From Patescibacteria group bacterium (GTDB lineage: Bacteria; Patescibacteriota; CPR2; UBA1875; CAIMLA01), in the NCBI GenBank assembly GCA_041738615.1, contig JBGSPL010000001.1:92071-156070 (forward strand): DNA of 64,000 nucleotides, in the 5' to 3' direction. Of this stretch, positions 19,986 through 21,964 are shown in pieces. Each line of letters begins with the position of its first letter. Position 1 is the first letter of the stretch. Made by a program: the position numbers and the translations under genes. The notes below the pieces were generated by a model. The model did no database searches and had not been told where the DNA came from. It was given only the letters and a program-made list of their open reading frames with translations.

Positions 19986-21080
19986 TCAAAAGTTTAAGCG
20001 AAAGACGTTGCCACCGAGCTGTTTCACCTTTGCCGATATTTCCATAATGGTGACAGTGGAACCTACCACGCTCTGCGAAAGACCTGTCTCTTTGATGATG
20101 TCATCTATATGTTTCGGCTCAGCACGCAGGCATTCTATAATTATTGTTTCTTCTGGAGTGTTTCCGGCGATTTTGCGGATGGAGGCTACGGCCTCGGGGC
20201 AAGTAATCCCAAATTCGTCCAGGACATCTTGGGCGCTGGTGCAGACATGGGCTCCGTTGCGGATCAAGTTGTTTGTTCCCCTACTGTTTAGGTTGAAGAT
20301 ACTTCCTGGTACCGCAAAGACCTCCCGGTTTTGGTTCAGTGCCGCAAGAGCCGTAATCAAGCTTCCGGAACTCTCCGCGGCCTCTGTAACCACTAAACCT
20401 TGAGAAATGCCGCTGATAATCCGGTTTCTAGCCGGGAAATTGTATTTTGCAGGGATGGTGTCAAAGGGAAACTCGGTAATGATGGCTCCACCTTGTGCAA
20501 TAATTTCTTTGGCCACACCCAAGTTACTACTGGGATAGATTCTACCTAGTCCGCACCCGAGCACAGCTATTGTAATCCCGCCTTCGTTAATGGTAGCTTG
20601 ATGTGCGATAGCATCTATGCCCAGGGCGAGCCCGCTGACTATCGTAATCCCACTAGCGGCAAGGTCGGAGGCTAGCTTCTCGGTAGCGCGAACGCCATAA
20701 TCGGTGAGCCTCCTACTGCCGACAATCCCAACGCAGAGTGCATTTAGATCTGCAGACCCCTTCTTGTATAAGATAAACGGAGGGTCGTATATTTGGAGTA
20801 ATATTTGGGGAAAATCGTTTTCAAAGATAAATATTGGTTCTATTTCGTTGCCACGCAGCTCCTGTAGCACTTTTTCTGGAGTGTATTTCTCGCGGGCAAC
20901 GATCAGCTCGCGCATACAACGTTCGCTGAGACCAAGTGACCCCAGCTTGGCTTTCGGGTAAGAAAAGAGCTCCTCGATAGGAATGTTGAGAGCGTAGAGT
21001 TGGTGAAAAAGAGCAGCGGTAAACCGGACGTTTCTACCTAAAGTAAGCCAATATTTATAGTCTTCCAGTGACTTTTCCAC
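19986..21080 (-). CDS. dprA: DNA processing protein DprA (Smf)
   Basis: Rossmann-like DprA core (GSRRLTDYGVRATEKLASDLAASGITIVSGLALGIDAIAHQ). Start placed at the GTG at 21080, which is preceded by GGAGGG. The ORF track's longer N-terminus (to 21206) looks non-native. Confidence 0.8.
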   Translation of the reverse strand: MEKSLEDYKYWLTLGRNVRFTAALFHQLYALNIPIEELFSYPKAKLGSLGLSERCMRELIVAREKYTPEKVLQELRGNEIEPIFIFENDFPQILLQIYDPPFILYKKGSADLNALCVGIVGSRRLTDYGVRATEKLASDLAASGITIVSGLALGIDAIAHQATINEGGITIAVLGCGLGRIYPSSNLGVAKEIIAQGGAIITEFPFDTIPAKYNFPARNRIISGISQGLVVTEAAESSGSLITALAALNQNREVFAVPGSIFNLNSRGTNNLIRNGAHVCTSAQDVLDEFGITCPEAVASIRKIAGNTPEETIIIECLRAEPKHIDDIIKETGLSQSVVGSTVTIMEISAKVKQLGGNVFRLNF

Positions 21081-21098
21081 AATCCCTCCAAAAAATGC

Positions 21099-21127
21099 TT
21101 GACAAAACCTACGTATGGTGCTAGAAT
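21099..21127 (+). promoter_or_regulatory. strong sigma-70-type promoter (TTGACA-17-TAGAAT with TGn extended -10)
   Basis: TTGACA at 21099-21104, a 17-nt spacer, and tgcTAGAAT at 21119-21127. It is divergent from dprA and fires into the 280-bp non-coding gap before pth. Confidence 0.55.
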
Positions 21128-21134
21128 GATATGT

Positions 21135-21378
21135 CAGCCTAAATCGGGCAGACATTTGACAATAAGTTCCCCTACACAGCACATGTTGCCGTGAGTGTCC
21201 TATCAATGAGTAAGGCCTTAAACACCCTCCTTTAAGCTTACTTGTTGGTAGGGTTCTCCCTGCAACCGCCAGCCAATATTTTGGGCTAGGTCAAGTCTTC
21301 GGGCAGTGTTGCAACCTCGGGAGAACTTTGAAACAAAAGTAAAGGAGTCGTACTTGTACGGCTCCTTTACTTTATTAT
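21135..21378 (+). ncRNA. candidate small RNA (about 240 nt) of unknown class
   Basis: Delimited by the promoter at 21099-21127 and an intrinsic terminator (14-bp stem at 21339-21370 plus TTTATT). No ORF of 40 aa or more with a ribosome-binding site. The 330-bp non-coding gap is unusually large for this genome. Confidence 0.35.
21339..21378. terminator. bidirectional rho-independent terminator
   Basis: gtaaaggagtcgtac-ttg-tacggctcctttac forms a 14-bp stem with one G-U pair. It has a T-run on the plus strand (tttatt) and a T-run on the minus strand (ttttgttt), so it also terminates pth. Confidence 0.7.
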
Positions 21379-21409
21379 AGGTATTTAATTACTACAAGTA
21401 GACAAAATG

Positions 21410-21964
21410 CTAAAGGCTGGTGTGTTCGATTCCCTCTTTGAGGGCTTTCTCCAGCTCTGCTACTGTCTTGTTGATTCCGCTCTCCACAACTTTCAGTTCA
21501 TCTTTGTTGAAACACTTGAGGACCACATCTTCTGTTGATAGGTAGTCACAATGATCGTCCTTGATGCCCATACGGAAGCGCGGGAATTCTTGAGTACCGA
21601 TATTGTCGATAATCGATTGCACCCCTTTGTGACCGGCAGAGCTGCCTGTACGACGCACGCGCACAGTGCCAATTTCTAAATCGATATCGTCGTATAGTAT
21701 CCACACGCGATCTGTCGTAATGTTGAAGTACCCCATCATAGCCTGCACGGAAACGCCTGATTTGTTCATGAATGTTTGGGGCTTAGCTAGAATAATCTTC
21801 TCACCATTGATAAACGTCTCTGCCGTTTCTGCGTTGAATTTCTTGTTCAGGGTAAACTTGGCATCGTATTTTGCAGCGAGTGCGTCAATAGCGGCAAAAC
21901 CGAGGTTATGCCGGGTGCAGTCATATTCTTTACCTGGGTTACCGAGTCCTACTATAAGTTTCAT
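21410..21964 (-). CDS. pth: peptidyl-tRNA hydrolase
   Basis: MKLIVGLGNPGKEYDCTRHNLGF N-terminus. 184 aa. Confidence 0.92.
   Translation of the reverse strand: MKLIVGLGNPGKEYDCTRHNLGFAAIDALAAKYDAKFTLNKKFNAETAETFINGEKIILAKPQTFMNKSGVSVQAMMGYFNITTDRVWILYDDIDLEIGTVRVRRTGSSAGHKGVQSIIDNIGTQEFPRFRMGIKDDHCDYLSTEDVVLKCFNKDELKVVESGINKTVAELEKALKEGIEHTSL

Follow-up and report, generated by a model that had tools for sequence, protein, structure and literature searches.

A probable new family of structured RNAs encoded head-to-head with dprA in Candidatus Saccharibacteria

Several small RNAs (sRNAs) of bacteria carry C-rich loops of anti-Shine-Dalgarno character. These include RoxS/RsaE of Firmicutes, the 'cuckoo' RNA CcsR of Alphaproteobacteria with its CCUCCUCCC loops, the hairpins of RNAIII and the cyanobacterial Yfr1. 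RoxS/RsaE, CcsR, the pneumococcal csRNAs and the RNAIII hairpins work by pairing of the loop with a Shine-Dalgarno (SD) sequence, and the cia-dependent csRNAs of Streptococcus repress comC and competence. A second kind of stand-alone RNA contains a riboswitch or is bistable, as in EutX/Rli55 with its adenosylcobalamin (AdoCbl) riboswitch and in SreA/SreB. For Saccharibacteria and the Candidate Phyla Radiation (CPR), whose genomes measure about 1 Mb, we know of almost no non-coding RNAs (ncRNAs) described beyond rRNA, tRNA, transfer-messenger RNA (tmRNA), RNase P RNA and signal recognition particle (SRP) RNA. We analyzed a stretch of 64,000 nucleotides (nt) from a Patescibacteria group bacterium (contig JBGSPL010000001.1, positions 92,071 to 156,070), here called the window, in whose own numbering all positions are given. 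We found that positions 21131-21379 of its plus strand, between dprA and pth, very probably encode an independently transcribed, stable and structured ncRNA of ~250 nt. As judged from sequence comparison, this RNA belongs to an uncatalogued family that is confined, as sampled, to Candidatus Saccharibacteria.

The gene lies in a non-coding gap (21081-21409) bounded by the dprA start and by the pth stop codon (21410-21412). The flanking genes der, pth, dprA and topA are all on the minus strand, and the Pth of the window was 97% and 71% identical to the Pth of two metagenome-assembled genomes (MAGs) named 'uncultured Candidatus Saccharibacteria'. An earlier sequence-only reading had described this gap as an sRNA gene that runs from a near-consensus promoter to a terminator on the plus strand and contains no open reading frame (ORF), and our analysis bears this out in its coordinates as well as in its substance. 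To collect homologs we used syntenic contigs reached through DprA homologs together with an exact-pattern scan of JGI metagenomes for two invariant words; the scan returned 17 loci, of which 14 were real and three (L032, L036 and L039) were chance matches. This yielded 20 distinct RNA homologs (alignment A3), all on Saccharibacteria-like contigs. No ORF of the gap was kept in frame or in length on either strand when the 20 homologs were compared, and a protein or small-peptide gene was rejected on this ground. We likewise rejected a role as the leader or riboswitch of some gene downstream, since the neighbours on the plus-strand side (pth and der) are convergent with the RNA in most loci.

The promoter that the sequence-only reading had singled out matched the consensus at 11 of 12 positions and has the TG extension (TG at 21119-20, -10 hexamer TAGAAT at 21122-21127). 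It was the sole sigma-70-like site between 20500 and 22000 and ranks among the best in the 64-kb window, although the count of promoters alone was not above chance, as shuffled sequences yielded 2.5 +/- 1.6 sites at the scan threshold. Transcription is predicted to start at about 21131-21134. The pattern TTGACA-17-TGnTA[GCA]AAT was kept in all 18 homologs that cover the 5' flank. The 12 variable columns of the spacer were 0-50% identical to the window, except in the near-identical L002 (83%), and by this comparison the spacer is essentially random among homologs. The RNA core (A3 columns 105-266), on the other hand, was 67-98% identical to the window, as compared to 50-90% for the DprA protein. 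Because the promoter spacer has been randomised while the RNA core stays conserved, the RNA body appears to be under selection.

Structure predictions pointed to the same strand as the promoter. The plus strand of 21134-21385 folded at -89.3 kcal/mol (z = -5.17 relative to dinucleotide shuffles), while the minus strand of the same region reached a z of only -1.88. In the full alignment 94% of the cells form standard pairs, as compared to 39-48% when the 3' partners were slid by 1-3 columns. Double-sided changes were found in 19 pairs, and the compensatory changes are spread over four separate helices. The terminator helix was 98% paired and had compensatory double changes in 13 of its 16 pairs, while hairpins H3a and H3b were paired in 100% of the cells and had four double-change pairs between them, so that the covariation among relatives that the sequence-only reading had looked to was indeed present. 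Its terminator stood as well, with a stem of 16 rather than 14 pairs. A simple terminator scan did not flag the hairpin 21338-21371, which is present in the minimum free energy (MFE) fold. On the minus-strand side the hairpin is followed by UUUUGUUU, downstream of pth, and from this sequence the bidirectional use of the terminator by pth, also part of that reading, is plausible in the window.

The covariance model built on the family (R1) gave 111-185 bits on the plus strand and 18-32 bits, a palindromic echo, on the reverse strand. Three G.U pairs are conserved in hairpin H2; read on the other strand they would become A.C mismatches, and they therefore fix the strand of the RNA as plus. A structured transcript of the minus strand was rejected on the strength of its z value, its model score and the G.U pairs. 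We also weighed whether the region could be an element of the DNA itself, such as a dprA regulatory region or a recombination or uptake site, with an incidental fold. H2 is invariant as DNA and holds a fixed position beside dprA, which would fit such an element too. However, the compensatory changes in four helices, the loss of pairing upon sliding, the large strand asymmetry of the covariance model and the conserved promoter and terminator that bracket the region all speak for RNA, and the conserved G.U pairs would be A.C mismatches in a DNA hairpin as well as on the other strand. An element acting as DNA is thus hardly credible.

The homologs fall into a long and a short type (positions of the elements are collected in Table 1). 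Seven homologs were of the short type, which lacks P1 and the linker and in which the 5' end pairs with strand X instead; their DprA, where the contig includes dprA, was about 50-55% identical. The segment 0 helix was paired in 94.8% of the cells, with C-G/U.G exchanges only, and was picked by RNAalifold and by most single-sequence MFE folds. In these folding models the pairing of segment 0 with GGGAGAACUU could close the whole molecule in an alternative fold. Across the family the loops of the three-way junction H3 are variable, whereas its junction bases have been retained.

Table 1. Features of the RNA gene and its surroundings, in window numbering.
Feature	Position	Strand	Remarks
dprA translation start (GTG)	21080-21078	-	Pfam DNA_processg_A; database protein P0001, 364 aa, 100% identical
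dprA Shine-Dalgarno sequence (GGAGGG)	21089-21084	-	9 nt separate it from the RNA promoter's -35 box
RNA promoter	21099-21127	+	TTGACA 21099-21104, 17-nt spacer, extended -10 TGcTAGAAT 21119-21127
P1, 5' hairpin AUGUCAGCC-UAAAUCG-GGCAGACAU	21131-21155	+	Long type only; 82% of cells paired, one double-change pair
Segment 0, AAGUUCCCC	21164-21172	+	Long type only, in variable linker; complementary to GGGAGAACUU (21319-21328)
Strand X, GUUGCCGUGAG	21185-21195	+	First of two alternative partners of Y
H2 hairpin, CCUAUCAAUGAGUAAG..CUUAAA / UUUAAG..CUUACUUGUUGGUAGG	21199-21252	+	22 bp (16 + 6); loop CACCCUCC at 21223-21230
Strand Y, GUUCUCCCUGCAAC	21253-21266	+	Predicted to pair with X or X'
Three-way junction H3, interior	21267-21307	+	Junctions CGCC, UCAAG and AGU around H3a and H3b
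Hairpin H3a, CC-AGCC..GGCU-A-GG	21269-21290	+	Inside H3
Hairpin H3b, GUC-UUCG-GGC	21295-21304	+	Inside H3
Strand X', GUUGC-AACCUC-GGGAGAAC	21308-21326	+	Second partner of Y; closes the three-way junction
Single-stranded linker	21327-21337	+	UUGAAAC 21328-21334 invariant in all homologs reaching that far
Intrinsic terminator	21338-21379	+	16-bp hairpin 21338-21371, then UUAUUAUA
Conserved motif ACAAGTAGACAA	21394-21405		~20 nt past the terminator; A3 columns about 325-336

The position of the gene next to dprA was as constant as its structure. All 20 homologs lie directly upstream of dprA and are divergent from it, and over the wider set of loci the RNA gene was divergent from dprA and adjoined it in 23 of 23 cases. 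The linkage holds even where pth is elsewhere or has been rearranged (L001, L012/L013, L017 and L043). Promoter scanning and inspection found no convincing sigma-70-like promoter for dprA, either in the interval that separates it from the RNA promoter or in overlap with the latter. Since only 9 nt lie between the dprA SD and the -35 box of the RNA, with no promoter in this space, dprA must have a promoter that overlaps or is contained in the RNA gene. These facts would suit a purely cis-acting control that represses or times the expression of dprA and topA, in which promoter occlusion, convergent interference or perfect antisense pairing with a long dprA leader starting beyond the terminator does the work and there are no targets in trans; the head-to-head arrangement has persisted through several rearrangements, and a conserved motif with a minus-strand TATAAW box outside the terminator travels with the unit. 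Control of this kind, however, would constrain neither the structure nor the loop, yet covariation is seen in H3a, H3b and the terminator, the loop does not vary and the G.U pairs are specific to one strand. In addition, the spacer of the candidate promoter on the minus strand is 20 nt long and this promoter lacks a good -35 box, and the linkage could simply reflect deleterious breakpoints between overlapping control regions. We therefore consider cis control as the whole function distinctly unlikely.

Some individual loci showed how the unit has moved. In the L012/L013 lineage dprA is inverted relative to pth, which makes the two genes convergent; here the RNA followed the 5' end of dprA in its move. 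The breakpoints of several independent rearrangements fall immediately beyond the unit that consists of the RNA and its downstream motif. In L001 (4544-4888), and also in L031, the tblastn match to DprA beside the RNA is limited to residues 2-112 (45% identity); a truncation, split or replacement of dprA is possible in L001, where the RNA is intact and 82% identical over its full length. Outside the family, only 42 nt separate pth from dprA in a Magasanikbacteria locus, which lacks the RNA, and the covariance model was without a match in three other Patescibacteria loci.

The downstream motif is present as ACWAGTRGACAA in L001, L002, L013-L018, L023, L026, L033 and L035, and the short-type homologs have WATAGTAKAC at the place where the long type has this motif. 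It accompanies the RNA gene even at loci where pth is not adjacent. On the minus strand the motif reads TTGTCYACTWGT and is followed after ~20 nt by TATAAW; the corresponding element in the window is TTGTCT-N20-TATAAT, with TATAAT at 21379-21374. The TATAAW box overlaps the U-tract of the terminator and has a fixed position in all long-type homologs. Together, the motif and the box may form a non-canonical promoter or operator of the minus strand, from which antisense transcription would run through the RNA gene towards dprA.

Hairpin H2, 54 nt in length, was the most conserved part of the RNA. Its loop CACCCUCC, predicted to be an apical loop of 8 nt, was invariant in 20 of 20 homologs, and its arms were invariant except for a few single-base exchanges of G.U to A-U or G-C; not one compensatory double change was found in the 22 bp across the 20 homologs. 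The loop and its 3' flank (CACCCUCCUUU, the loop followed by UUU) resemble the 3' end of 16S rRNA with the anti-SD sequence, which is GAUCACCUCCUUA in E. coli. We then found a remote homolog, L042, whose DprA is 46% identical and which scored 22 bits (E about 2e-4) with model R1 when the filters were off. It has the same promoter type, element order and position as the RNA of the window. Its H2 arms differ and branch; still retained are CCUACC/GGUAGG at the base and CUACCCUCC as an apical loop. Two further Patescibacteria/Saccharibacteria loci, L043 and L022 (DprA about 44% identical), had no detectable sequence homolog of the RNA. In both, a consensus promoter divergent from dprA, a long hairpin and a U run were observed on the minus strand of the locus (L043 2060-2290; L022 2780-2960), and the RNAs encoded there are possible analogs of the window RNA in the same position. 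L022 has an apical C-rich loop, UUUCCUCCU, and L043 has the C-rich motif ACCCUCCUCC, whose place in the predicted fold is ambiguous. A loop motif (A)CCCUCC or UCCUCC thus recurs across L042, L043 and L022 despite different surrounding helices. Since the loop persists in L042 while the arms change, the C-rich loop on a long helix is the deepest-conserved feature of the RNA. At the 5' end of the L043 analog AUUAGUA(G) is repeated five times in tandem, and three tandem tRNA genes (L043 659-932) lie about 1.1 kb from it.

A protein partner or some second constraint is suggested by the lack of covariation in the H2 stem. This led us to weigh whether the RNA is a protein-binding housekeeping RNA, either a lineage-specific functional analog of 6S RNA that sequesters the RNA polymerase holoenzyme or a subunit of another ribonucleoprotein, with the putative protein reading H2 and its loop. 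Extreme conservation without covariation is what protein-contacted RNA elements show, and the very strong promoter in a small genome would fit such a role. Moreover, pairing of the 5' and 3' parts in the long type and in L021/L019 gives a closed rod of ~175 nt with a large asymmetric internal bubble that is loosely 6S-like, and no 6S gene was detected in the 64-kb window, which is a small fraction of the genome. On the other hand, the Rfam 6S models were silent at E <= 10, the closing stem is inconsistent in the short-type homologs, and L022 and L043 keep only the long hairpin with its C-rich loop. The terminal stem-loop, which is most conserved here, is not the conserved part in 6S RNAs. On balance a protein-binding housekeeping RNA is unlikely.

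Other explanations of the loop were also tried. Pairing of the H2 loop with the terminator arm AAAGGAG was rejected, as the arm varies and the loop does not. A fragment of rRNA or an extended complementarity to rRNA was rejected as well, with 8-10-mers at chance level against an E. coli rrn operon. Away from H2, GUUCCCCUAC (21166-21175) was perfectly complementary to the helix-45 loop region of E. coli 16S rRNA, GUAGGGGAAC; this match was at chance level (blastn E = 0.83) and was not conserved in relatives.

Next to H2, strand Y can pair with either of two partners. The helix X:Y has 11 pairs, was paired in 83% of the cells, had compensatory double changes in four pairs and stacks under H2. 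The pairing Y:X' consists of two helices that were 91% and 98% paired with two double-change pairs, and it closes the three-way junction. Changes in Y were matched on both sides: a change of C to A in the short type was accompanied by G to U in both X and X', and where L014/L035 have U for C in Y, X and X' each have A for G. In each of the 17 full-length homologs, constrained folding placed the two states 0.5-6 kcal/mol apart. X:Y was favoured by RNAalifold and by most MFE folds of single sequences, while within the family the isolated Y:X' duplex was the stronger one, with long-type values of -15 to -20 kcal/mol. For L042, the remote homolog, the X:Y duplex had -19.0 kcal/mol as compared to -8.0 +/- 2.4 for shuffled Y, and the Y:X' duplex had -15.8 as compared to -9.9 +/- 2.3 for the shuffled controls. 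The pattern of changes suggests that the pairing of Y with X or with X' represents two alternative conformations, both under selection.

Two mutually exclusive, compensated helices that share one strand are also what a riboswitch-like stand-alone sensor would have. In such a sensor H3 would bind a ligand or respond to a physical cue and so stabilise Y:X' over X:Y, with a change in what the remaining RNA displays, and conserved junction bases with variable loops in H3 correspond to the classic architecture in which an aptamer competes through its P1. The resemblance extends to EutX/Rli55 and SreA/SreB, which are likewise stand-alone ncRNAs in which a junction-closing helix competes with an alternative helix. 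Unlike those RNAs, however, the dprA-side RNA had no match to a known aptamer model, its competitor strand lies upstream of the junction, which is atypical for an aptamer, and it offers no choice of a premature terminator that would have an obvious consequence. Most loci have no downstream gene on the same strand, L042 does not keep the junction sequence, and L043 and L022 are without H3. A sensor of this type is very improbable.

We searched for catalogued families with Rfam 15, at gathering thresholds on the 64 kb and at E <= 10 on a 551-nt search of the gap; of the relatives, three close homolog loci were scanned at E <= 10 and three distant loci at E <= 5. At gathering thresholds the only matches in the window were three tRNAs, in agreement with ARAGORN, and since these lie elsewhere in the window a tmRNA or tRNA-like RNA was excluded. 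The permissive scan of the gap returned terminator look-alikes only (ohsC and the precursors of plant and animal miRNAs), on either strand, and the same was true of the three close and the three distant loci. Bacteria_small_SRP and Bacteria_large_SRP had no match in the gap, the close loci or the distant loci at these limits, and the 6S models had none in the gap or the three close loci. The sequence-only reading had named SRP and 6S RNA as candidates and an Rfam/Infernal scan for them and other families as the check; neither identity was sustained. Likewise, at E <= 10 no family of the RsaE/RoxS, csRNA, CcsR or Yfr1 kind was found besides the terminator look-alikes. Full-text literature searches found no description of a Saccharibacteria or CPR RNA of this kind.

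The reading's remark that part of the RNA is reminiscent of SRP RNA domain IV was correct as to the words. Local alignment of 21251-21334 with E. coli ffs gave a score of 36, as compared to 18.1 +/- 3.6 for shuffled sequences, of which 1 in 500 reached 36, and H3 shares with ffs, in the same order, GGUUCUCCC(U)GCAAC and AGGUCA(A/G)GUC. In size the RNA fits the large type of SRP RNA, and the hairpin of the window has a stable tetraloop. The features that define domain IV of SRP RNA were absent, however. The loop of H3b, the candidate for helix 8, is free to vary (UUCG, UACG, UCCG, GAAAC, AAAU, AAAA or GCAA) in place of a conserved GNRA tetraloop. On the flanks of H3b the 5' side is a conserved AGGUYAAG and the 3' side is NGU or NGA (AGU, GGU, CGA), without the AGCA that in SRP helix 8 faces a 5' AGG in the internal loops bound by the M domain of Ffh. 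The ffs-like 3' words (GCAACC) are missing from the short-type homologs, and the main conserved domain, H2, has no counterpart in SRP RNA. To our knowledge, the E. coli helix-5 words matched by the 5' part are not a conserved SRP feature. SRP RNA was therefore rejected; that the gene encodes a highly divergent 4.5S/scRNA is scarcely credible, and the resemblance to ffs is coincidental or at most vestigial.

The likeness to 6S RNA (SsrS) was of a more general sort. Both RNAs are roughly 200 nt in length, have a strong housekeeping-type promoter and are probably abundant, and in both there are alternative pairings, with a rod containing a large internal bubble in one predicted fold of some members here. 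The long type could close through AAGUUYYYC:GGGAGAACUU. Unlike 6S RNA, the best-covarying fold is a series of separate domains rather than one rod, and the conserved element is a terminal hairpin and loop rather than a central bubble. Identity with 6S RNA was not supported, as the models were silent and the agreement of the fold was loose and concerned some members in one of two conformations. We conclude from these sequence comparisons that the dprA-side RNA is a new family of a known general kind, the structured or regulatory sRNAs of bacteria.

Among these the sRNAs with C-rich loops came closest. The RNA has its own promoter and intrinsic terminator without an ORF, and it displays a conserved C-rich hairpin loop that is predicted to be unpaired and complementary to SD sequences, in bacteria not known to rely on Hfq; with the csRNAs it shares a link to competence. 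It differs from the described members in being 2-3 times longer, in bearing a single C-rich loop on an invariant 22-bp helix instead of several short hairpins, and in having an extra three-way junction, two competing helices and a fixed head-to-head position with dprA. No homology of sequence or model was found at E <= 10. By analogy with these sRNAs, we tentatively favour the possibility of a riboregulator that works by means of the C-rich loop, with the alternative folds modulating it and the gene impinging on dprA. The loop CACCCUCC with its UUU, held on a long rigid helix, would pair with the purine-rich SD (..AAAGGAGGG..) of target mRNAs and would thereby block or modulate the initiation of translation. 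In the Y:X state H2 would be extended to a rod of ~35 bp and the purine-rich X' and UUGAAAC would be freed, while in the Y:X' state the three-way junction would be closed and X freed; the exchange between the two could gate activity or the binding of a partner. Firing of the strong RNA promoter would interfere with the expression of dprA, or the RNA would act as antisense to the dprA leader. Such interference is expected because any promoter of dprA has to be situated within the RNA gene or in overlap with it. The targets, the switch and the effect on dprA are what we infer from the gene, its strand, conservation, helices and linkage to dprA, as observed here.

Several observations weigh against a riboregulator of this design. 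The sites in the window that are complementary to the loop were generic purine-rich sequences that were not enriched at start codons, and no specific target stood out among them. The SD of dprA is complementary to the loop in long-type genomes only. A simple model with a seed in the loop does not explain the missing covariation in the H2 stem. As for the switch, the X:Y duplexes of the family are weak (-5 to -11 kcal/mol) and only about 1-2 standard deviations better than those of shuffled Y, near-isoenergetic alternative folds are common for RNAs of this size, and the compensations for both pairings amount to two or three independent lineage events only. The part that concerns interference or antisense is one that we infer, with no sigma-70-like dprA promoter located.

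A bolder version of the riboregulator would make the RNA a bistable device specific to Saccharibacteria, which are the episymbionts within the CPR. Here CACCCUCCUUU would serve as a mimic of the 16S 3' end, and the exchange of X:Y and Y:X' would hide or expose GGGAGAAC, a purine-rich strand of SD character, and UUGAAAC and so signal to dprA, with its role in DNA uptake and recombination, and to other mRNAs; the device would sense the availability of ribosomes or SD sequences, or a ligand at the three-way junction. We regard this version as improbable.

Two reading frames that touch the gene also deserve mention. The listed ORF 19986-21206 lengthens dprA artefactually by 42 codons at the 5' end, up to TTG 21206, and so runs across the promoter of the RNA as well as its 5' half; dprA in fact starts at GTG 21080 (ATG in L002). 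Because of this over-extension, automated gene callers could mask the RNA gene. At 21319-21342, the GGGAG of X' could act as an SD sequence that is followed after 4 nt by the invariant UUG AAA, and the resulting mini-ORF in the window reads UUG AAA CAA AAG UAA with its stop codon inside the 5' arm of the terminator. The mini-ORF is probably not coding, since its number of codons varies from 3 to >20 among homologs, and the loading of a ribosome there is conceivable.

The alignment and the covariance model can be used for annotating Saccharibacteria MAGs, and they provide a defined candidate, possibly a natural two-state RNA, for transcriptomics and genetics in the cultivable TM7 strains. Features that may prove more unusual are the mimic of the 16S 3' end on an invariant helix, the apparent bistability and the obligatory linkage to a competence gene. 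If the bistable device were true, it would be a new stand-alone RNA switch that ties translational status to the acquisition of DNA in organisms dependent on scavenged nucleic acids. For episymbionts that lack nucleotide synthesis, competence is regarded as a resource on which they depend. The RNA is kept far more faithfully than the neighbouring proteins, which indicates that it is probably important to Saccharibacteria, and its obligatory position at dprA hints at a control of natural competence at the level of RNA.

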